DNA of 64,000 nt from Pyrinomonadaceae bacterium (lineage in GTDB: Bacteria; Acidobacteriota; Blastocatellia; Pyrinomonadales; Pyrinomonadaceae). The position numbers were made by a program, and so were the translations under genes. The stretch covers positions 11,001 to 75,000 of the forward strand of contig JAUZFQ010000015.1 of NCBI GenBank assembly GCA_030838445.1. Reading direction: 5' to 3'. Under the pieces are notes generated by a model that was not told the DNA's origin, made no database searches, and was given only the letters and a program-made list of their open reading frames with translations. This document shows, piece by piece, positions 11,588 through 25,800 of this stretch (position 1 is its first letter; every line of letters begins with the position of its first letter).

Positions 11588-11989
11588 TCAATTAGTTTCG
11601 GGCGGGACGCTGACCATCTTCCGCAGCAGTTCTTGCAACGCGCGGCGCGGGTCGGAGCACAGCCCGGCGTGCACGGCCGACGTTTGCACGATGGTGCTGC
11701 GCGGCGCGACCAGCCAGTCGAAGCGAGCGCGGCGCGGCAGGCGGCCGATTGTGCCGCCGCCCTCGCCCCCCTCGCAGATCAAGCGTATGGCTTCGAGGTG
11801 CGCCCGCAACTCGTTCACGTCCAGACCCGGCGCGAACGCCGCGAGTCGCCGCTCGTCCAACTCGAACGCGGCGTTCAGGAAGTCGGCCGTCTGGCACGAG
11901 AGGATGACGCCGACGTTCATAAACTCTTCGCGCTCGGCGTGCGGCACGACGCGCACGACGGCGTAGTTAAACGAGTGACGCTCTGACAC
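11588..11989 (-). CDS. DUF3037-like small protein (tentative family assignment)
   Basis: N-terminus [25 protein letters not shown] matches my recollection of DUF3037. The likely start is GTG 11989, preceded by GGAGG (11996-12000), rather than ATG 12046. It overlaps the upstream kinase stop by 23 nt. Confidence 0.55.
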
Positions 11990-12767
11990 GCGCTGCCTCC
12001 TCGGCGAAAAGTCTGGGCGGTTCGAGCCGCTGCACAAGGTAGTCAACGTAAGCCCGCCGGAACTCGCCCGCGCTCGGGAACGTCGTGTCCGCGGCGAGCC
12101 ACACGTCGGGGATGAGCGAGACGATCTCGCCGACGACTGCGGGCGTCAGGCGGGCGGCGAGCGTCTCGTCGAGTTCCTCCAGCAGCGTCGCGGACGGCAG
12201 CAGGATGTGGTCTTTGATGAGTGCGAACGCGCCGCGGCTGCGCTCAAGGTAGTTCGCCCAAGTGTGATGAAAGTAGAGCGACGCGCCGTGGTCTATGAGC
12301 CAGAGCCGCTTGTGCCACATGAGCATGTTGGCGTTGCGCGGCGTGCGGTCAACGTTCGTCGTGTAAGCGTCGAACCAGACGACCGTGGACGCCAGTTCGG
12401 GACTCAGCTTCTCGACGAGCGGATCAAAGGTGACCGAACCCGGCAGGTAATCGAGCGCGAGGTTGAGTCCGACGCTCGCCTTCAAGAGGTCTTGAATCTC
12501 CGGGTCGGGTTCTGTCCCGGCGAGCGCGGCGTCGAGTTCGACGAAGACGATCTCGGGGACGGGCAAGCCGAGCGCACGGCCGATTTCGCCCGCCAAGAGT
12601 TCCGCGACGAGCGCCTTCGGCCCTTGCCCCGCGCCGCGAAATTTCAGCACGTAGAGTCCGTCGTCGTCCGCCTCGACAATCGCGGGCAGCGAACCGCCCT
12701 CGCGCAGAGGCGTCACGTAACGCGTCGCCGTCACCGTTCGCACATTCAGAGTCAAACTATCTTTCAC
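11967..12767 (-). CDS. HipA-like / PI3-4-kinase-fold Ser/Thr kinase-like protein
   Basis: YVLKFRGAGQGPKALVAELLAGEIGRALGLPVPE, followed by a catalytic-loop-like NVDRTPRNANMLM and LIDHGASL (HipA-type D.H..N and DxG equivalents). Confidence 0.6.
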   Translation of the reverse strand: MKDSLTLNVRTVTATRYVTPLREGGSLPAIVEADDDGLYVLKFRGAGQGPKALVAELLAGEIGRALGLPVPEIVFVELDAALAGTEPDPEIQDLLKASVGLNLALDYLPGSVTFDPLVEKLSPELASTVVWFDAYTTNVDRTPRNANMLMWHKRLWLIDHGASLYFHHTWANYLERSRGAFALIKDHILLPSATLLEELDETLAARLTPAVVGEIVSLIPDVWLAADTTFPSAGEFRRAYVDYLVQRLEPPRLFAEEAARVRASLV

Positions 12768-13834: not shown

Positions 13835-14602
13835 CTAGTTAAACTTTCCCAACTCCGTCACACGCGCCTCTTTCGCGGCGACGGCAACCCGGTTCGCCTC
13901 GGCCAGAGTAAAACGTTTTTCGTAAAACGCCTTCCCGATAATCACGCTGTCGATCCTGCCTTCGCACGCAAACTTCAAACGCTCAATCTCCGCGAGCGTC
14001 GACACGCCGCCCGAAGCCGTGACCGCCACGCCCGACGAGAGCGCGACCGCGCACGTCTGCTCGACGTTCACCCCTTCAAGCATCCCATCGCGCGCCACGT
14101 CAGTATAGACGATCCGCGCGACGCCCGATGCCGCCACGCGTGCGGCGAGTTCGCCCGCGCTGATCTCCTCCTGCTTCTCCCACCCGCGTGTGACCACCCG
14201 CCCGTCCCGCGCGTCAATCCCCACGGCGACGCGTTCGCCGAACAGCCCGATGAGTTCCGACAGCAGTTCCGACGACTCGACGACAAGCGTGCCGACGACG
14301 ACCCGCGCCGCGCCGTGTTCGATCATCACGCGCACGTCCGCCACGCTACGCAAGCCGCCGCCGAACTGGACGGGCACACGGACGGCCTCGATGATGCGCC
14401 GCGCCACCTCCCGGTTCGGCGATGCGCTTTCGGCGAACGCCCCGTCGAGATCAACCACGTGCAGCATCCGCGCGCCCGCCGCCTCGAAGCTGCGCGCGAT
14501 CTCCACCGGATCACCGTCGTAAATTTTGGCCTCCGCCTTACGCCCCTGCGTCAGACGCACGCATTGCCCGTTTCTCAAATCAATCGCTGGAATAATCAAC
14601 AT
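13835..14602 (-). CDS. hisA: ProFAR isomerase HisA
   Basis: [20 protein letters not shown]..., (beta/alpha)8 HisA/HisF signature, in his operon context. Confidence 0.9.
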
Positions 14603-14608
14603 CTAATT

Positions 14609-14664
14609 TCTCACGCTTAACTTCTCACGCTTCATTTCTCACGCTTCATTTCTCACGCTTCATT
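14609..14664 (-). repeat. Four tandem 14-nt units (minus-strand AATGAAGCGTGAGA) filling the hisN-hisA spacer
   Basis: Plus-strand units tctcacgcttcatt at 14651-14664, 14637-14650 and 14623-14636, plus variant tctcacgcttaact at 14609-14622. The first unit contains the hisN stop codon. Confidence 0.95.
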
Positions 14665-15438
14665 TTTGACGTGGCCGAGCACGGTCTCGAAGAGGAGGCC
14701 GTTAGTGGAGATGGCATTGCCCCCGCGAATTGTGCGTCGGCCGCCCCAGTCTGTGAACGTCCCTCCGGCCTCTTCGAGGATGGGCAAGAGCGGCGCGCAG
14801 TCCCACACGTTCATCACCGGGTCGAGCATCACCTCCGCGCGCCCGGTGGCGACGAGGACGTGCCCGTAGCAATCGCCCCACGTGCGCCGCGCGCCCGCCG
14901 CCTGTTCCAAACGGCGCGCCGCCTCGCCGAAGCCGTAACGCTCGCACGTCCCGAAGTCAGTCGAGAGCAACAGGGCATCCACGAGCGTCGGCGTGGCGGA
15001 GACGCTCGCGCGCGTGTCGTTCCAGAAGCAGCCCGCGCCCCGCGCCGCGTAGACGATCTCGCCGAGCGCGGGCAAATTGACGACGCCCAGGCAAACCTCT
15101 TCCGCGATCTCCAAACCGATGAGCACGCCGTAGAGCGGCACGCCGTGGACGAACGAGTAAGTGCCGTCAATCGGATCAATGATCCACTGCCTGCCGGACG
15201 AACCAGCGCGCGTCTCTTCCTCTTCGCCGAGCACCGCGTCGTGCGGAAATTTTTCTTCGATGCGCGCGCGGATGAACCTTTCGGCTTCGCGATCCGCCTG
15301 CGTCACGAACGAGCCGTCGGCCTTGCGTTCGGGCGTGAAGGGTCGCCGGAAGTGGCGCAAGGTAATCTCGCCCGCCCCGCGCGCGAGTCCGACGGCGAAC
15401 TCCAACAACTCTTCCAATCCCGTTTCATCCTGTTTCAT
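14653..15438 (-). CDS. hisN: Inositol monophosphatase-family protein, probable histidinol-phosphate phosphatase HisN
   Basis: IMPase motifs WIIDPIDGT and WDCAPLLPILEEAGG. It is embedded in the his operon, where HisB is dehydratase-only. Its start overlaps the hisIE stop. Confidence 0.7.
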   Translation of the reverse strand: MKQDETGLEELLEFAVGLARGAGEITLRHFRRPFTPERKADGSFVTQADREAERFIRARIEEKFPHDAVLGEEEETRAGSSGRQWIIDPIDGTYSFVHGVPLYGVLIGLEIAEEVCLGVVNLPALGEIVYAARGAGCFWNDTRASVSATPTLVDALLLSTDFGTCERYGFGEAARRLEQAAGARRTWGDCYGHVLVATGRAEVMLDPVMNVWDCAPLLPILEEAGGTFTDWGGRRTIRGGNAISTNGLLFETVLGHVKNEA

Positions 15439-16136
15439 TTCGCGCCCCGCTTCCCCTCACGCACGGCCAGTTCCGACTCGATCTCTTCCAACCCGACGCC
15501 GCGCTCGACCAGCAGCACGAGCAGATGATAGAGCAAATCCGATACTTCGCCGGCGAGCGCGTGCGCGTCTTCGTTCTTCGCCGCGATGATCGTCTCGGCC
15601 GACTCTTCGCCCACTTTTTTCAAAATCTTATCCAACCCCTGCTCGAACAGATAGGTCGTGTACGCGCCCGCGGGGCGTTCCCGCCGCCTGCTCTCGATCA
15701 GCGCGTACAGCCCCGCGAGTGTCGCGCCGAGCGAACGCGGGCGTCTTGTCTTAACGTCGCCTTCGCTCTCGCCGAACTCATTCACACTTTCGATCTTGAG
15801 TTCATTCGCACTTTCGATCTCGTGTTGAAAACATGAACGCGCGCCCGTATGACACGCCGGGCCTGACGGCTCGACGAGCGCGACGAGCGCGTCGCGGTCG
15901 CAGTCAACCGCGACGCCGAGGACGCGTTGCGTGTGGCCGGAAGTTTCGCCCTTATGCCAGAGTGCGGCGCGCGAACGCGACCAGAACCACGTCTCCCCCG
16001 TGTCGAGCGTGCGCCGCAAACTCTCCGCGTTCGCGTAGGCGACGGTGAGCACCTCGCGCGTCGCCGCGTCCTGCACGACCACGGGGACGAGGCCGCGCTC
16101 GTCGTACTTCAAATCCTCCAACGCGTATTTCGTCAT
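15435..16136 (-). CDS. hisIE: Bifunctional phosphoribosyl-AMP cyclohydrolase / phosphoribosyl-ATP pyrophosphatase HisIE
   Basis: [23 protein letters not shown]...[17 protein letters not shown] (HisI) followed by [21 protein letters not shown]...[13 protein letters not shown] (HisE). The true start ATG 16136 overlaps the hisF stop (ATGA). The Arg-rich 113-aa extension in the ORF track is spurious. Confidence 0.9.
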
Positions 16137-16927
16137 CGCACCACGACTCCCCTCCCACGCAAGTATTGTTTGACCTCCGACACCTTGTGCTCGCCGAAAT
16201 GAAAGAGCGACGCGGCGAGCACCGCGCTCGCGCGCCCCACGGTGAGCGCATCGTAAAAATGTTCGAGCCGACCCGCGCCGCCGGAGGCGATGACGGGCAC
16301 GCGCACCGCGTCGGCCACGGCGCGCGTCAGTTCGAGGTCGAAGCCGTCGCGCGTGCCGTCCGCGTCCATGCTCGTCAACAGTATCTCGCCCGCGCCGAGT
16401 TGTTCCGCGCGCGCAGCCCATTCGACCGCATCCAGCCCCGTGTTGCGCCGCCCGCCGTGCGTGAACACGTCCCACCCGCTCGTCGCGCCGTTGCTACTAC
16501 TGCTGCTGCTGCTGTCGCCCGTCACTCTCCGCCGCGCGTCAATGGCGACGACCATGCACTGGCTGCCGAAAGTTTCTGCTCCCGCGCCGATCACTTCGGG
16601 GTGTTCGACGGCGGCCGTGTTGAGCGTCACCTTGTCAGCCCCGGCGCGCAGCACCGCGCGAATGTCTTCGAGCGTGCCGAGGCCGCCCCCGACGGTGAAC
16701 GGGATGAACACCTCGTCGGCCACGCGGCGCACGAGTTCAGAGACGATGGCGCGTCTGTCCGAAGAGGCCGTGATGTCGAGGAACGTCAACTCGTCCGCGC
16801 CCTCCGCGTCGTAACGCTTCGCCTGTTCCACCGGATCGCCCGCGTCCACGAGCGACAGAAAGCGGATACCTTTGACCACGCGCCCGCGATCAACGTCGAG
16901 ACACGGGATGATCCGTTTGGCTAACAT
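16133..16927 (-). CDS. hisF: Imidazole glycerol phosphate synthase cyclase subunit HisF
   Basis: [20 protein letters not shown]... plus conserved HisF motifs. It contains an unusual poly-Ser insertion ([15 protein letters not shown]). Confidence 0.95.
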
Positions 16928-17560
16928 CTAGCTCGCACCCGCTTCCAACCCGGCGAAGTTTTTGAGCAGGCGCAAGCCCGCCGCCTGACTCTTCTCCGGG
17001 TGAAACTGCACGCCGCACACAGCCCCGCGCGCCACGACCGAAGCATAAGCCGCGCCGTATTCCGTCTCTCCCAACACGACCTCGCGCGCCTCAGGCTCGC
17101 AATAGTATGAATGGACGAAATAGAAAAACGTCCCTTCCTCAACGCCCGCTAACAACGCATGAACGCCCCGCTGCACGACCTGATTCCAACCCGTCTGCGG
17201 CACTAACAACTCCTTCGGGAAACGTCGGACACGACCGCCGAGCAACCCCAACCCCTGTGTCCGCCCGAACTCCTCCGACTCTTCAAACAACATCTGCATC
17301 CCCACGCACACGCCCAAAAGCGGAGTGCCCGTCGCGGCGCGTTCGCGCACGAGTTCGTCGAAGCCGCGCGCGCGCAGCGCACTCATGCACGCGCCGAACG
17401 CGCCGACGCCCGGCAGCACCAAACGCTTCGCCGCGCGCAGCACGCGCTCGTCGCCGCTCACCAACGCCTCGCAATTCGTCGCCCCGAAAGCCTTCTCCAC
17501 CGAGCGCAGATTGCCGACGCCGTAATCAATGATCGCCACTTCCGCAACGCGCACGCTCAC
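16928..17560 (-). CDS. hisH: Imidazole glycerol phosphate synthase glutamine amidotransferase subunit HisH
   Basis: [31 protein letters not shown] (catalytic Cys), FHPEKS. Confidence 0.9.
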
Positions 17561-18165
17561 AAACTCCCCTTCGTGCTCGGCACGCCTTCGACGCGCGAAT
17601 CGAGTTCCACCGCCTGCCTGAGCGCGCGCGCCGTCGCCTTAAACGTCGCTTCGAGGATGTGGTGCGTGTTGCGCCCGCGCAGCAGATCGAGGTGCAAGTT
17701 GCAGCGCACGGCTTCTGCAAACGAACGCCAGAAATGTTCGGCCAACTCGACCGAGAAGTTGCCGATGGCCTGTCGCCGCGTCTCCACTTCGTAGACGAGG
17801 TAGAAGCGTCCCGACAGATCAACCACCGCTCGGCACAACGCTTCGTCCATCGGCACTATGCCTGCGCCGTAACGCGTGATGCCGCGCTTGTCGCCGAGCG
17901 CTTCGGCGAACGCCTGTCCGAGCGAGATGGCGACATCCTCCACCGAATGATGATCGTCAATTTCCAGATCGCCGCGACACTCCACTTCGAGATCGAAGAG
18001 GCCGTGGCGCGCAAACAAGTCGAGCATGTGATCGAGGAACGGCACGCCGGTCGAGATGCGCCCCCGCCCCGTGCCGTCGAGATTGATCGAGACACGCACG
18101 TCGGTCTCTTTCGTCTGCCGTTGAACTCGCCCCGTGCGCGCACGCGTTTGCAGTTGAGTGCTCAT
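17557..18165 (-). CDS. hisB: Imidazoleglycerol-phosphate dehydratase HisB (monofunctional)
   Basis: [16 protein letters not shown]...GVPFLDHML...[11 protein letters not shown]...[12 protein letters not shown]. Confidence 0.95.
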
Positions 18166-19310
18166 AATTTTTCTCTCACGTTTGCCAGAGGTGAACTTGC
18201 GACTTCTTCACCGTCGCCTTCTCCCGGCGATTGCTTTCCTTCGTCGAATATTTCCTGCAACGCCGACAGGAGCAGATCGTTCTCGCGCGGCGTGCCGACG
18301 CTGACGCGGAAATAGTCTTGCAGCAACGGGTAGCCGCTCACGTCGCGGATCAGGATGTCGCGCTTGAGCAGTTCTGCAAAGACGCGGCGCGGCGCGAGCG
18401 TGGAACGCACGACCATGAAGTTCGCCTCCGACGCGACCGGCTCAAGTCCCTCAATTGCACGCAGACCTTCACACAGCCGCCCGCGCTCGGCGACGATTTG
18501 CGTGATGAGCGGTCGCAGTTCCGTCTCGTACAACTCGACGGCGACTTCCGCAATCGTCTGCGAGACGACGTTGAGGTTGTAGGGCAGCACGGCCTTCGCG
18601 ATCTCTCGCGCGAGTTCCGGCGCGGCCAGCAGGTAGCCGACGCGCAACGCCGCCAACGCCATCGCCTTCGAGAAGGTGCGAAACACGACGAGGTTCGGGT
18701 GTTCGTGCAATAGCCTCACGACCGTCCGTTCGGAAAACTCGAAGTAGGCTTCGTCAACGGCGACGAGTCCGCGCGAGACTTCGAGCAGCGAGACGAGTTC
18801 CGCATCAACGATCCTGCACCCCGTCGGGTTGTTGGGCGAGCAGATGATCGTCACGTCCGGTCTGTCCGACACGATCTTTTCGCGCAGGGCGGCCGTGTCG
18901 TATTTCAAACGCGCGGCGAGCGGCACGCTCAACACGTCGCCGCCGAGGACGGTAGCGACCTGCCGGTAGAGCGCGAACGTCGGCTCGCTGATGAGCACGC
19001 GCTTGCCCTCGCTGACCGTCACCATCAACAAGGATTGAATCAATTCGTTCGAGCCATTGCCCGCGATGATGCCGTCCGCGCGCCACCCGGCGAAGGCCGC
19101 GAGCCGCTCGTGCAAACTCGCGGGCACGAAATCCGGGTAGCGCGACCACGCGCGCCCGCCGAGACGACGCAAGCTCTCCTCCCTGATCCGCTCCGGCGCG
19201 TCCCACGGGTTCTCGTTCTGGTTGAGCTTGACGGCGGCGCGCTCCGGCGTCAGCGTGTAAGCACGCAGTTCGCGCACGCGCGGCTTGATCGTGTCCAACA
19301 AATCGGGCAT
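18162..19310 (-). CDS. hisC: Histidinol-phosphate aminotransferase HisC
   Basis: Class-II aminotransferase motifs (LNQNENP..., [23 protein letters not shown]). The preferred start is ATG 19310, with AGGAG 8 nt upstream; the ORF track starts at 19364. Confidence 0.9.
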
Positions 19311-19369
19311 AGATAATCTCCTGCAACTACCTTTCGGCCACGTGCGGCCGCCATAAACTTTCACGCCGC

Positions 19370-20667
<1,298 letters not shown>

Positions 20668-20671
<4 letters not shown>

Positions 20672-21309
20672 CCCGCCACTCCTTTACGTAACCCCCGGCT
20701 CAACGCTTCGATCAGACGCGACACCGCCGTCGGCTTCAGTTGATAGCTCGCGCGGTTGACCACGAGACGTGCTGACGACTCCGCGATCACTTCCACCACT
20801 TCGAGGCCGTTCTCCGAGAGCGTCCGCCCTGTCTCCACGAGGTCAACGATGCAGTCGGCGAGGCCGAGCACCGGCGCGAGTTCGACCGACCCGGACAACT
20901 CGATGATCTCGACCGGCACGCCGCGCGCGCCGAAGTGCGCGGCCGCGATCTGCGGATACTTCGTGGCGACGCGCAGCGCGCCCGTCACCGGGCGCGACTG
21001 TCCCGCGTGGGTCGCGACGGCGATCCTGCAAAAGCCGATGCGCAGGTCGAGCGGCTGCAAGAGGTCTGCGGCGGATTCGAGCAGCACGTCGCGCCCGACG
21101 ACGCCGCAATCCGCGATCCCGTGCTCCACGTAGACGGGCACGTCCGACGGCTTGACGAAGACGAAGCGATACGCGCCGCTCTCGTCTTCAATCGCCAGAC
21201 GCCTCGACTTGAGCGCCGACCCGCTGACGCTGACGCCGGAGCGCGCCAGCAGTTCGAGCGTCTCGTCCTGCATTCTTCCCTTCGCCACCGCGACAGTTAA
21301 TTCCGGCAT
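20668..21309 (-). CDS. hisG: ATP phosphoribosyltransferase, short form HisG
   Basis: 213 aa (LTVAVAKGRM..., DLVETGRTL) without the C-terminal regulatory domain. It is paired with hisZ. Confidence 0.9.
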
Positions 21310-21318
21310 CCGCTTTTC

Positions 21319-22452
21319 TCACCCCGCGTAGTTAATCAACACACGCTCGCCCCGCGCGCGCCGTACCCGCGCGTCAACTAAAATCTCTGACGGTTCAATA
21401 GCAGCCTTGTCATGAAGCGCGCGAACATTTGCGCCGACAGTTTCATCCGAAGTCGCGACGCCCTTCTTGCGCATGAGCACATCGGTCAACGCGTCGAGGT
21501 CGAGGACGAAACCGACCGCCGGTTCAGCCCTGCCGAAGTTTGCCGTCAGATTGTCGTAACGGCCACCGCCGCCGACGCGCGCGCCCGCGCCCGCCACGTA
21601 AATTTTGAAGGTCAGGCCGGTGTAATAATCGAGTCCCGACACGTCTCCGAGATCGATGTCGCAAACTTCGTCCAAGCCCAACGCGCGAACGATGCGCCAC
21701 AAAGATTCAAGCTCGTCGAGCGCAACGAGCGAGCGCGGGTTGGTGATGATGCGCCGCGCTTCGTCGAGTATCTCGCCCTTGCCGGAGAGTTGCGTGAGGC
21801 GCGAGAAGGAGATGCGTTCGCGCTCCGTGGTGTCGAAGTGCGAGAGGAATTTTTGCAGTTCGGCTGCGTCGCGCGTGTCCACGAGTTGCCGCATTCGCTC
21901 GCGTTCGGCGTCGTCGAGCGTCAGGTGTTCGGAGATGCCGCTAAAGATTTCGACGCTGTTGATCGTGATGCGGTAGTCGCCGCCGAGGTTCAACGCCGCG
22001 AGAATTTCCGCCGCGACCGAGAGCGTCTCCGCCTCCGCGCCCCTGCCTCCGACGCCGATCAGTTCGCAGCCGAGTTGTTTGTTCTCGCGCCTCCATTCGG
22101 CGTGAGTCAGTTGCCGCTGGTGGAACACGGGCGACGCGTAGCAGAAACGCAGCGGGCGCGTCTTCTCCGCGAAGAGCGTCGCGGCGGCGCGCGCCACCGA
22201 AGAGGTCACGTCGGGTCGGAGCGCGAGCATCAGCCCGTCGCCGTCCGTGAAACGGAAAGCACGGTGCGCCGCCTCGTAACCCATCCCGCGCTCGAACAGC
22301 GCGAGGTAATCAACGCACGGCGTCGTGATCTCTTCGTAAGACCAGCCGTCGAACACGGCCATGATCGTGTCTTCGACGCCGCGCCGCAGACGCGCCTCCG
22401 CGCCGAAGTAATAACGCATGCCGCCGGGAATTTTTGAGAGTGGCTCAATCAT
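21319..22452 (-). CDS. hisZ: ATP phosphoribosyltransferase regulatory subunit HisZ (HisRS paralogue)
   Basis: Class-II aaRS-like core (FRFTDGDGLMLALRPDVT, GGGGRYDNL) lacking an anticodon-binding domain. It lies immediately upstream of the short hisG. Confidence 0.85.
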   Translation of the reverse strand: MIEPLSKIPGGMRYYFGAEARLRRGVEDTIMAVFDGWSYEEITTPCVDYLALFERGMGYEAAHRAFRFTDGDGLMLALRPDVTSSVARAAATLFAEKTRPLRFCYASPVFHQRQLTHAEWRRENKQLGCELIGVGGRGAEAETLSVAAEILAALNLGGDYRITINSVEIFSGISEHLTLDDAERERMRQLVDTRDAAELQKFLSHFDTTERERISFSRLTQLSGKGEILDEARRIITNPRSLVALDELESLWRIVRALGLDEVCDIDLGDVSGLDYYTGLTFKIYVAGAGARVGGGGRYDNLTANFGRAEPAVGFVLDLDALTDVLMRKKGVATSDETVGANVRALHDKAAIEPSEILVDARVRRARGERVLINYAG

Positions 22453-22480
22453 AAAATCGTGTGCGCCGCCCGCACTGCTC

Positions 22481-22541
22481 TTAAAACAAAAAGAAGAACC
22501 CGCTGCCGACTCGTCGCGAGACAGTTGGCAGCGGGTTCTTC
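22481..22541 (-). terminator. Intrinsic terminator hairpin plus U-tract in the his leader (candidate attenuator terminator)
   Basis: Perfect 15-bp stem GAAGAACCCGCTGCC (22541-22527) / GGCAGCGGGTTCTTC (22507-22493) with a 19-nt loop, followed by TTTTTGTTTT. It ends about 30 nt before the hisZ ATG. Confidence 0.7.
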
Positions 22542-22566
22542 GGTAACGAAGCGTGAGTCTTTTTAA

Positions 22567-22701
22567 CTACTCACGCATCTTTTCGTGGGAGTCCACAAAA
22601 ACCGGCGCGCTGCCAGCATGGCGATGATGGACGCCATGATGCAAAGCCCCGCCGGTATGTTGGGCGACTGTGAAAAATTGCTTCGTATAATTCCGATTCA
22701 T
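22567..22701 (-). CDS. Candidate his operon leader peptide (44 aa, 7 His)
   Basis: The unlisted small ORF ATG 22701 to TAG 22567 encodes MNRNYTKQFFTVAQHTGGALHHGVHHRHAGSAPVFVDSHEKMRE. It lies between a promoter-like element and the terminator, upstream of hisZ. Confidence 0.6.
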   Translation of the reverse strand: MNRNYTKQFFTVAQHTGGALHHGVHHRHAGSAPVFVDSHEKMRE

Positions 22702-22713
22702 AAAAGTTTGAAT

Positions 22714-22743
22714 TTTATACTTGACCGCCTGACCCCATGTCAA
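22714..22743 (-). promoter_or_regulatory. Sigma-70-like promoter for the his leader/operon
   Basis: Minus strand TTGACA (22743-22738), 18-nt spacer, TATAAA (22719-22714). The leader ATG lies 12 nt downstream of the -10, so the 5' UTR is very short or near leaderless. Confidence 0.5.
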
Positions 22744-22803
22744 ACACCTCCGCCCCGATCAGTTCAGGGCAGACGCGTCGCGCTCGTCTCGTCGTTCCAA
22801 GAC

Positions 22804-25800
22804 TCAACAGCGGGGAGTGGTCGTTAACAGAGCGTCGGCTTGAGCCTGTTCATGTAGTGCTGCTGTCGCCGGTAGTTCTATCAACGGTAATTTTGTCACC
22901 GGCTTAACTTCAACGGCGGCGCTTCGTAAAACCTGGCCGACGGCTTCGGAGTCAAGAAACGTCGTGCACTGCTGTTCGTCGTGAATACCTGCGGCGATCA
23001 ATTTGACGATGGCGGCGGCCTGCGCGAAGGCTTCGTGCGCGCCCGCCGCATCGCCCGCACGCGCGCGCAAGCGACCCATGTCGGCATGTGTCTTCCACGC
23101 TTCGACGGGGACGGGATGCGCGGCGAGTCCGGCGAGCGACTCGCGCAATTCGACTTCGGCCTCCGCGTCGTCGCCGCGACCCGCGGCGATCCGGGCGAGC
23201 AGCCGGTGTGCGACCGCGATGTACTTGTGCGCCTCGTAGCGCGTGGCGATCTCAAGCAGCGAGCGCGCGCGTTCGTGCGCGTCGTCGAGTTCGCCGACGG
23301 CGATCAGGTGTTCGCACTGCCCGGCCTGCAAACGAATTTGATAACGCCAGCGAAACCACGCGTCGCGCCGGAAGATGTCTTTCACTTCGCGGAACGACTT
23401 CACCGTCTGGTCGCTCTCGCCCGCGTGCCTGTGGTCAATGCCGAGGTTGATCAAAGAGTTGGCCTGCGCTTCGAGCACGTTGGCCTTGCGCCCCACCTCC
23501 AGGCCGCGGCTGTTGTACTCGCGCGCGCTCGCGAAGTCCTGCATCTCTCGATAGACCCACCCGATGCAGTTTGGGATGCGCGGCGACCAGAATTGCTCGC
23601 CGTTGCGACGCGCGATCTCAAGCGCCTCGTCGAACGTCGCCAGCGCTTCGGACAGGCGACCCTGATTGCCGCGCACCATGCCGAGGACGAAATAACTTTC
23701 GAGCAGCAGGAAACCGTCGCGCAGTTCGCGCGCGAGTTCTTGCGCCTCCTTGAGCATCTCTTCGGCCGCCACGTAATCGGTCTGGAAGAAATAGAGTATG
23801 CCGCGCCACGCCAAGCCGGTCAGCAAAACTTTCTGATGATCCAGCGTGCGCGCGTCGGCGATGATCTCGTCGAGCATCGTCTTGGCTTCCGCCAGTTCGC
23901 CGTAACCGAGGTTCTTGAGGGCGATGACCTGCATCGCCTCGATGCGGAGGGCGGCGCTGCCCGACCTTTCGGCGAGCAAGAGTATCTCGTCGGCGCGCGC
24001 GGTGATCTCGTCCAAACGGTGCGAGTAGAAGAGCGTCATCGTGAGCGCGTTGAGGGCGGCCGACTCTTGCGCGGTAGACTTGAGGGCGCGCGCCTGCGTG
24101 AGCATCTCCGTGTAGTCGTCCACGGCTTCGGCGAAACGTCCGAGAGAAAGGTTGGTCGAGCCGCGCTTCTGGTGAAGCTCTAATAAACTCTTCGCCTTGT
24201 CCTCGTCCGTTAGTTTCTCCGCGAGTTCGATGGCGTGCGTGTAGTGTTCGGCGGCCTCGGTGTTGGCGTACAGCCGCACGGCGTTGTTGCCCGCGTGGAG
24301 GAGAAACTCGACGGCGCGCTCGAAGGCGCGACCGCGCTCGAAGTGCATGGCGAGTTGAGCGGCGATGCGCGGCGACTGCTTGCCGTAGTGCTTGACCAAC
24401 TGCTCGCCCGCCTGACGGTGAAGCAGGATGCGACGCTTGCTGACCAACTCGGCGTAGAGCATGTTCTGGTAGAGCGCGTGGACGAAACGGTAACGCGTCA
24501 CGAGCGACCCGTCGGGCAGTTCGTCTTCGCCGAGGGTCACGATCAAACGATGCACCTTGTCCAGAACGGCGAGGCGTTCTTCCGTTTCGAGGTCGTCCGC
24601 TCCGAGCAATTCGGCGACCACGGTTGAGAGAAACTCGTCGCCCGCGACGCTCGCATACTGGAGCGCGCGCCGGTCGTCTTCGCCGAGCGTTTCGATCTTC
24701 TTGCGGATCATGCTGCGCACGCTCTCCGGCGTCTCCACGTCCATCTCGGAGAGCGGGCGTGCGAGCGACCAGCAGTTGTCAATCTTCGCGATCTCGCCGC
24801 GCTCGGCGAGAAACTGCAACAGACCCGTGGCAAAGAGCGGGTGTCCCTCGGTCTTGCCCTCGACGAACGAGGCGAACTCCGGCGGGAAATCGTTCGGCGC
24901 AAAATGCGCGTCGAGGTACTTCGCGATGTGCGTCTCGTTCAGAGAGTCGAGGGCGATCTCCTCGGACAGACGACGCGCCTGCATTTCGAGTTTGTACTTC
25001 TTGAGCGGGTGCTCGCTGAGTTCCACTTCGTCGGCGCGCAGCGTACCGAGCATGAGCAGACGTTGGTCGCCGATGCGTTGACTGAGGTGGCGCAGCAGGT
25101 CAATGCTCGAAGGATCAGCCCACTGCAAATCTTCGAGGAACAAGACGACGGGCGAAGCGGAAGCCAACGCCGCCAGCGCGTCGCCCATCTCACGCAGCAT
25201 CCGCTCTTTGGTCACGTTCGCAGGGTCTTGCTGTTGCTGCTGCGACATCTCTAAGGCCGTCGTCGAAACTAGGGCCGAAGGAAATTGCAAACACCACGTC
25301 GGCGCGTAGGTGCGGAGCACGGCCGCCACGCGCTCGCGGTGTGGGGCGTTGAGCAGCGCGCCGATGGCGTCGAGAAACGGCAGGTAAGCCTCGCCCGTGC
25401 CGTACTGCTCGACGCAGCGGCCGCGCGAAAAGAGCAGCCCCGAATACTGCCTGCGCGAGCGGCGCATGAATTCGTCAACGAGCGAGGTCTTCCCGATGCC
25501 GGGTTCGCCCGTGACGAAGACGACGCGCCCCGCGCCACCGATTGATTGACGCAGCACCTCGTCCAGCCTACACAGTTCGGCCTCGCGCCCGACGAACGAC
25601 TCGGATTCGTTGTTGGCCGACGAAACTTCGCTGGCTTGCGTCAGCGTGGAAACATACCCGGTGGTTCTGCCATGCAGCGAGTTCAAAGCGTCGGCCAGTT
25701 CCGCGGCCGAAGCGTAGCGTTGCTCCCTGTCCTTCGCCAGCGCGCGTTCGACGATGAGATCGAACTCGAAGGGGAGTTCCGGTCTCGTCCCGCTCGGCGG

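Follow-up and report, generated by a model that had tools for sequence, protein, structure and literature searches.

A candidate histidine-responsive leader-peptide attenuator ahead of the hisZ-first operon of a Pyrinomonadaceae bacterium

The complete histidine operon on the minus strand of a 64 kb stretch of DNA from a Pyrinomonadaceae bacterium (Acidobacteriota, Blastocatellia), here called the window, is preceded by a promoter, a short open reading frame (ORF) rich in histidine codons and an intrinsic terminator. Its elements and predicted folds make it very probable that this leader is a histidine-responsive, ribosome-mediated transcription attenuator of the whole hisZGDCBH(A/F)IE-N-(F/A) operon. 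Of 159 related loci, about 105 show this arrangement of promoter, His-rich ORF, terminator and hisZ, in at least four sequence subtypes. As judged from sequence, the leader belongs to a textbook class of regulator as a new family of apparently independent origin; what is new is the phylum and the sequence family only. It would give the Acidobacteria, an abundant but poorly studied soil phylum, their first concrete and testable mechanism by which a cis-regulatory RNA controls amino-acid biosynthesis.

The leader in the window and in related loci

An original prediction, made from the DNA of the window, had named a promoter, a 44-codon ORF, several hairpins, a 15-bp terminator stem, a U-tract and the hisZ ATG, and all of these are present on the minus strand at the positions it gave (Table 1). 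The -10 box lies 12 nt from the leader ATG. Only 30 nt without a promoter-like motif separate the U-tract from the hisZ ATG at 22452, leaving no room for a separate his promoter, as had been claimed. Histidine codons occupy positions 15, 21, 22, 25, 26, 28 and 39 of the leader ORF (7/44), six as CAT and one as CAC. In 25 long ORFs of the window, whose start codons are crude guesses, histidine makes up 1.9% of codons and is written as CAT in 20% and CAC in 80% of cases, with a G+C content at third codon positions of 0.81. The clustering and the preference for CAT that had been reported both hold against this background.

The leader elements are not chance matches. The exact promoter pattern and the terminator 3' arm with its U-tract each match once in the window, against an expectation of 0.00. 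When the 64 kb is read in all six frames, a single run of eight codons holds at least five histidines, and it is the HHGVHHRH of the leader; a second copy of the leader was sought elsewhere in the window and not found. The 268-nt leader RNA folds at z = -6.8 relative to dinucleotide shuffles. A promoter scan that required T at the last position of the -10 box gave no match at the leader, and the TATAAA box was validated instead by exact-pattern statistics and by its conservation.

Relatives were drawn from 80 hisZ loci of species-representative genomes (the genome set, L001-L080) and a further 80 from metagenomes, and 159 of these enter the counts. The roughly 105 loci with a His-codon ORF and a terminator before hisZ answer a search that had been suggested with the prediction. 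In the genome set, the Pyrinomonadaceae-type loci (HisZ at least about 54% identical) bear an ORF with a single ATG and 5-10 histidines upstream of hisZ, among them that of the cultured Pyrinomonas methylaliphatogenes K22 (L006), where the mechanism could be tested. In the metagenome set the ORF is found in 68 of 79 loci; those without it mostly have too little upstream sequence or belong to a lineage with hisZ directly behind another gene. Leader length ranges from 21 to 46 codons; the median number of histidines is seven, each ORF has a single ATG, and the sequences of the subtypes are unrelated to each other except for histidine. Subtype A is the window's own; B reads MSF..THHHHGAHHHANHHWHQGSA..., C MTHHPHTAAHHHHGHHGHARGRVWGD and D MF.TDRGHHAYWHHHHTGGGLAIV.... 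The histidine codons are CAU and CAC in a ratio of 176:112 and are in frame with the ATG and the stop codon in all subtypes.

The flanking elements are equally persistent. A promoter of the form TTGACA-N17/18-TATAA[A/G/C] precedes the leader ATG in 99 of the 105 leader-bearing loci. The distance from the -10 box to that ATG is exactly 9 nt in 47 loci and at most 13 nt in 65 of the 99; in subtype D, which includes L097 and L111, a TATAAG box lies exactly 9 nt away. A scan located the terminator in 35 of 36 genome-set leaders, the exception being L006 with its weak U-tract, and in all 63 distinct metagenome leaders. Its median free energy is about -24 kcal/mol and it begins about 21-27 nt past the ORF stop in both sets, the range in the genome set being 10-61 nt (mostly 23-34).

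The hairpin might instead merely terminate transcription of the kinase gene upstream, with the his operon read from some other, unseen promoter and the His-rich ORF a coincidence. There is indeed no other terminator between the kinase stop codon at 22804 and the hairpin, and read-through from upstream is probably stopped there too. However, the short gap before hisZ has no promoter-like motif, a consensus promoter stands between the kinase gene and the ORF, and tblastn found no homologue of the window kinase upstream of hisZ in any of the 80 genome-set loci (the strand of the upstream gene was not read from its longest ORF, an unreliable guide in high-GC DNA). The unit of promoter, ORF and terminator is nevertheless kept in those of the Pyrinomonadaceae type. 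Since the kinase gene is not conserved beside it, the unit belongs to hisZ and not to the upstream gene, as had been argued, and we regard a mere kinase-gene terminator as extremely improbable.

Ten genome-set loci (L011, L012, L013, L016, L019, L020, L023, L029, L035 and L039) have long spacers of about 100-270 nt between terminator and hisZ, filled with low-complexity palindromic inserts that resemble miniature inverted-repeat transposable elements or repetitive extragenic palindromes. That of L016 is ttttccatatgtcatttgtcatttctcatt ... aatgagaattgagaaatgacatatggaaaatc, and the spacers also contain ggacaggc..gcctgtcc hairpins. These inserts sit downstream of the attenuator, which is intact.

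Alternative pairings and ribosome-masked folds

Following the numbering used for trpL, we call segment 1 the span that holds the histidine codons, segment 2 the stretch just after the cluster, and segments 3 and 4 the 5' and 3' arms of the terminator. The His codons had been placed in a CAUGGCG/CGCCAUG hairpin, which we confirm; it forms the apical stem of the 1:2 hairpin, and the latter is the consensus structure of six group-A sequences. Three further helices had been named. Hairpin C, which encloses the leader stop codon, and the terminator are both present, and the GUGA/UCAC core of hairpin C is kept in group A. The small helix (b), CUUCG/CGAAG, is present in the window and is not conserved in the group-A sequences, the closest relatives checked. 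Hairpin B, within the antiterminator loop, is kept in group A with one double change.

Subtypes A, B and D share the terminator stem ACCCGCUGCC/GGCAGCGGGU. Just past the His run the ORF carries GGCAGCGCG (A and B) or GGUGGCGGG (D), a copy of the 3' arm that can pair with the 5' arm through the core GGCAGCG:CGCUGCC. Subtype C has UCACC..CACACGCCGC as the 5' flank of its terminator and GCGUGUGGGGUGA in the ORF, giving the pairing GCGUGUGGGGUGA:UCACC..CACACGC. L018 and L025 have GGCGGCG in the ORF and CGCCGCC in the terminator arm. Terminator flanks and ORF segments thus change together between subtypes. A second, inner helix joins GGUUGUGA in the ORF to UCACAACC past the stop and covaries in L009 as GAUUGUGA/UCAUAAUU; this helix of group B is the counterpart of hairpin C.

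Statistics for the genome set come from 36 leaders. The automatic parser mis-defined the terminator arm in L032, L038 and L039 and found no terminator in L006, and those rows are to be disregarded. The duplex between the ORF and the 5' arm beats shuffled sequences in 27 of 36 loci (median z -2.7). In the alignment of the 36, pairing holds for 82% of terminator cells, compared with 43-58% after sliding the partner, and nine pairs are altered on both sides, a number that none of 500 shuffles reaches. The antiterminator helix is 84% paired and the whole 19-pair antiterminated structure 77%, the latter falling to 29-51% when slid. Formal covariation of the antiterminator is modest because its core is almost invariant: GGCAGCG hardly varies among the aligned leaders although it is coding, third codon positions included.

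Three close relatives, L081, L083 and L084, indicate what is under selection. They keep the nucleotides of segment 2 (GGCAGC.CGC.GGUUUUUGUGG) in another frame, so that LAARWFLW stands where the window has AGSAPVFV; selection has therefore acted on the RNA and not on the peptide. This bears on the possibility that the ORF encodes a functional His-rich small protein, for instance a metal-binding one, whose place before hisZ is incidental. In its favour, a His-rich ORF is conserved in more than 100 loci, and one subtype-D leader peptide is annotated as a hypothetical protein on 24 IMG contigs in a collection of 15 billion proteins. The window's own peptide has no entry in that collection, and so has not been called as a gene. 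Against a small protein, the histidine codons alone are kept as amino acids while the part behind them is kept as nucleotides, the length varies from 21 to 46 codons, the subtypes share nothing but histidine, and the ORF always lies between promoter and terminator directly ahead of hisZ. We consider it very unlikely that the peptide itself is the function.

We folded transcripts ending just before the terminator 3' arm, either free or with a 28-nt ribosome footprint on each His codon or on the stop codon, and read out the specific pairing probability of segments 2 and 3. An earlier readout, in which the terminator 5' arm was paired with anything upstream, did not discriminate (0.7 in every state for the window) and was dropped. 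In the genome set the median 2:3 pairing is 0.03 in free RNA and 0.01 with the ribosome on the stop codon; at the best His codon it reaches 0.90 (0.59 as an average across the cluster). The window gives 0.01 free, 0.62 stalled at His and 0.22 at the stop codon, and the 63 metagenome leaders have medians of 0.74, 1.00 and 0.06. Before segment 3 has been made, segment 2 pairs with the span holding the His codons with a median probability of 0.67. Masking codons 21/22 frees segment 2, and the minimum-energy folds of the window show the antiterminator only with the ribosome on His 15, 21 or 22 (up to 26 in L001). The post-His segment had been proposed as the antiterminator strand, and its pairing, its co-change with the terminator and its appearance in stalled folds all bear this out.

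Proposed mechanism and its relation to known attenuators

Computation and comparison established which sequence elements are present, how they are conserved, and which alternative pairings they allow and how these co-vary; from this we infer where transcription starts, that the ORF is translated, that ribosome and polymerase are coupled, and that the leader responds to histidine in vivo. Transcripts from the TTGACA/TATAAA promoter would begin a few nucleotides ahead of the leader AUG, and a ribosome would load at once on a very short 5' end without a Shine-Dalgarno (SD) motif and trail the polymerase. With plentiful His-tRNA, the ribosome would reach the UAG and melt hairpin C. Behind it segment 2 (GGCAGCGCGCCGGUUUUU) would re-pair with segment 1 in the His-codon hairpin, the freed terminator 5' arm would pair with the 3' arm, and the polymerase would stop at the U-tract, 30 nt short of hisZ. 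Under a shortage of charged tRNA-His, the ribosome would stall on the first His codons of the cluster and cover segment 1. Once the terminator 5' arm is made, segment 2 would pair with its loop-proximal part (CGCUGCC plus GAAGAACC). As the loop-proximal nucleotides of the arm are those on which the terminator hairpin would nucleate, this pairing would block it, and the polymerase would continue into hisZ. We propose codons 21-28 as the regulatory codons.

A U5 run (GCGCCGGUUUUUG) follows the 1:2 hairpin at 22596-22617 (minus strand) in subtype A only, and a simple scan scored it as terminator-like. It may be a polymerase pause site that synchronises ribosome and polymerase.

Several observations weigh against this attenuation mechanism. 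The terminated fold of the window is far more stable at equilibrium than one with the antiterminator enforced (-94.2 vs -71.9 kcal/mol, a gap of about 22), and the full-length minimum-energy fold with a ribosome on His22 still has the terminator. A ribosome on the last His codons masks segment 2 itself, from codon 25 in the window and from codon 28 in L001. Clean three-state behaviour at the chosen threshold is seen in only 19-22 of 36 genome-set and 24 of 63 metagenome loci. Untranslated RNA of subtypes C and D already adopts the antiterminator by default, as the high pairing of free RNA in the metagenome medians implies. The antiterminator of L083 contains an A·C mismatch. No SD motif precedes the leader ORF. 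The leader is absent from the more distant Blastocatellia and from the Vicinamibacteria examined. Finally, of the metagenome loci fetched, L082 (Ga0136614_10004812, 280-611) shows the highest best-segment HisZ identity (82%). Hairpin C and the terminator are retained there, and unrelated AT-rich sequence stands where promoter and His-rich ORF would be, which may reflect decay of the attenuator, an insertion or a chimeric assembly.

Since the terminator is favoured at equilibrium, the antiterminator must win kinetically, as a trap. An equilibrium reading of the switch fails, since the full-length fold with a stalled ribosome does not give the antiterminator, and only the kinetic reading is tenable. 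In the trp and his paradigms, too, the antiterminator acts kinetically. The check on mutually exclusive folds that had been suggested thus had a divided outcome: 2:3 pairing switches in ribosome-masked transcripts, and the full-length equilibrium fold stays terminated. For subtypes C and D, modelling suggests that termination is permitted by a ribosome that has arrived at the stop codon, a site within the antiterminator loop.

In seven of the distant Blastocatellia that lack the leader (L041-L045, L048 and L074), a TGCTAG(G/C)TT motif lies about 25-30 nt upstream of hisZ. It is probably an extended -10 promoter element.

In the window, an SD-like motif was seen upstream of only 10 of the 25 long ORFs, and neither hisZ nor the kinase gene has one; initiation independent of SD motifs seems common in this genome.

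Given the stability of the terminator, the ORF might sense His-tRNA with an output that is not, or not only, intrinsic termination: Rho-dependent polarity, translational coupling to hisZ, or an attenuated transcript of about 220 nt acting in trans as a small RNA. The terminator is far more stable than the antiterminator and hisZ has no SD motif, both of which fit such an output, and in mycobacteria leaderless Cys-rich short ORFs attenuate without a classical terminator switch (bioRxiv 10.1101/834739). The GC-rich stem with its U-tract in nearly every leader scanned (35/36 and 63/63), together with a conserved complement of the 5' arm in the ORF, argues against it. A conserved terminator and a complementary ORF segment are hard to explain unless the choice between terminator and antiterminator is the selected function, and we think another output improbable.

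The leader could also sense uncharged tRNA-His or histidine directly, as a T-box or riboswitch with an untranslated ORF. It is highly structured, and T-box(His) control of his operons is described in Firmicutes and Actinobacteria (PMC9413887). Neither the window nor six representative loci matched any Rfam family, T-box included, at the gathering threshold, however, and nothing credible appeared at E <=10 in 22300-23000; a miRNA family that matched the terminator stem at a permissive E-value is spurious. By covariance model, neither the window nor the six loci belong to His_leader (RF00514) or to the T-box family. Moreover, the His codons stay in frame with ATG and stop in every subtype despite CAU/CAC variation, and the ATG is fixed at 9 nt from the -10 box in 47 loci. 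Direct sensing is accordingly a highly improbable account of the leader. What the window does have are the features of a leader-peptide attenuator: a His-enriched ORF after a promoter, an intrinsic terminator before hisZ and, by thermodynamic modelling, a mutually exclusive antiterminator.

The closest textbook system is enterobacterial hisL. The two share a His-rich short ORF right after the promoter, with His codons in the strand of the first hairpin. In both, anti-antiterminator, antiterminator and terminator hairpins exclude one another, and an intrinsic terminator stands ahead of the first his gene. Comparative and folding evidence supports the hisL-type logic that had been predicted. The two systems show no detectable homology of sequence or structure (no Rfam hit at E <=10), and whereas hisL has seven histidines in a row, this family has them interspersed as HHxxHHxH, 5-10 per leader. 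The family is also distinguished by hisZ as first gene with a short hisG, by an SD-less ORF mostly 9-13 nt past the -10 box, and by its occurrence in Acidobacteriota. With trpL it shares the four-segment logic of 1:2, 2:3 and 3:4 pairing, which masked folds reproduce for the window, L001 and many further loci. The amino acid sensed is different, and in subtypes C and D a lack of translation would mean read-through, not super-attenuation.

The original prediction had also held that such attenuation was undescribed for a hisZ-first operon or for this kind of bacterium. The first part does not stand. His leader peptides before hisZ were predicted earlier in the Bacillus cereus group (PMC2965389), and His leaders of hisZ or his operons in that group, Peptostreptococcaceae and Erysipelotrichales (PMC9413887). 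Like the leaders described here, these combine a His-codon ORF with a terminator and antiterminator before a hisZ-first operon and rest on comparative genomics only. They have 3-5 consecutive histidines and belong to another phylum. The second part does stand: a search of full-text literature found no his attenuation or leader peptides for Acidobacteria or Pyrinomonadaceae, and as of 2010 almost no predicted Acidobacteria attenuator had an assigned function (PMC2965389). We presume an origin independent of the Firmicutes leaders, by analogy with what those authors propose for their own lineages; this would be another independent invention of His leader-peptide attenuation. The more than 100 natural variants in four subtypes are enough for a new Rfam family.

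The short distance between promoter and AUG has a further implication. In standard promoter geometry of the E. coli type, 9-13 nt from the -10 box to the ATG implies a 5' untranslated region of about 0-6 nt, and on that inference the leader message would be of leaderless type. This suggests leaderless-type initiation of a regulatory ORF outside Actinobacteria. A precedent is found in mycobacteria, where leaderless polycysteine short ORFs are Cys-responsive attenuators (bioRxiv 10.1101/834739). They too have a sensor ORF at or near the 5' end, no SD motif and enrichment in the cognate codons. They act without a conserved terminator/antiterminator switch, unlike the present leaders, whose predicted 5' end follows from promoter geometry only. 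Tentatively, and as a possibility that falls somewhat short of probable, we suggest that these leaders are the first family of amino-acid attenuators in Acidobacteriota, independently evolved, in which the sensor ORF of most members is essentially leaderless and ribosome loading on the nascent 5' end is the coupling device. If true, this would mean tight coupling of transcription and translation and efficient leaderless initiation in Blastocatellia; the attenuator itself offers indirect evidence for such coupling in this lineage.

Feature coordinates, the operon and neighbouring genes

Table 1. Features of the leader and the operon behind it (positions in the window; all on the minus strand)
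Feature	Position	Details
Promoter	22714..22743 (-)	-35 TTGACA 22743-22738; 18-nt spacer; -10 TATAAA 22719-22714
Leader ORF	22567..22701 (-)	ATG 22701; 44 codons; MNRNYTKQFFTVAQHTGGALHHGVHHRHAGSAPVFVDSHEKMRE; TAG stop 22569-22567
Main His cluster HHGVHHRH	22618..22641 (-)	codons 21-28, inside the 1:2 hairpin
1:2 hairpin (putative anti-antiterminator)	22602..22654 (-)	CCGGCG 22654-22649 with CGCCGG 22607-22602; about -26 kcal/mol
Apical stem of the 1:2 hairpin	22638-22617 (-)	CAUGGCG/CGCCAUG
Segment 2	22596..22614 (-)	GGCAGCGCGCCGGUUUUUG; near copy of the terminator 3' arm; predicted 5' strand of the antiterminator
Hairpin B	22580..22600 (-)	UUUUGUGG/CCACGAAAA; -8.3 kcal/mol; within the antiterminator loop
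Hairpin C	22551..22576 (-)	GCGUGAGU/ACUCACGC; -10.8 kcal/mol; encloses the leader stop codon
Helix (b)	22551-22538 (-)	CUUCG/CGAAG
Intrinsic terminator	22483..22541 (-)	perfect 15-bp stem GAAGAACCCGCUGCC/GGCAGCGGGUUCUUC 22541-22493, then U-tract UUUUUGUUUU 22492-22483; -36.0 kcal/mol
Terminator arms		5' arm 22541-22527 (-), segment 3; 3' arm 22507-22493 (-), segment 4
Operon predicted to be regulated	13835..22452 (-)	hisZ, hisG (short), hisD, hisC-like, hisB, hisH, hisA/F, hisIE, inositol-monophosphatase family (hisN-like), hisF/A; from Pfam hits and ORFs
Inositol-monophosphatase-family gene	14653-15438 (-)	between hisIE and the last His_biosynth gene

The ten genes of a complete his operon lie downstream of the leader on the same strand. 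The inositol-monophosphatase-family gene among them is probably a HisN-type histidinol-phosphate phosphatase. By its HisZ homologues the organism falls in Pyrinomonadaceae, the best match being 95% identical. The gene upstream of the leader encodes a 1259-aa Ser/Thr kinase with AAA_16 and TPR domains. Just past the his operon come a luciferase-like monooxygenase and then, at 11588-12767 (minus strand), a DUF3037 gene with an overlapping HipA_2-family kinase gene.

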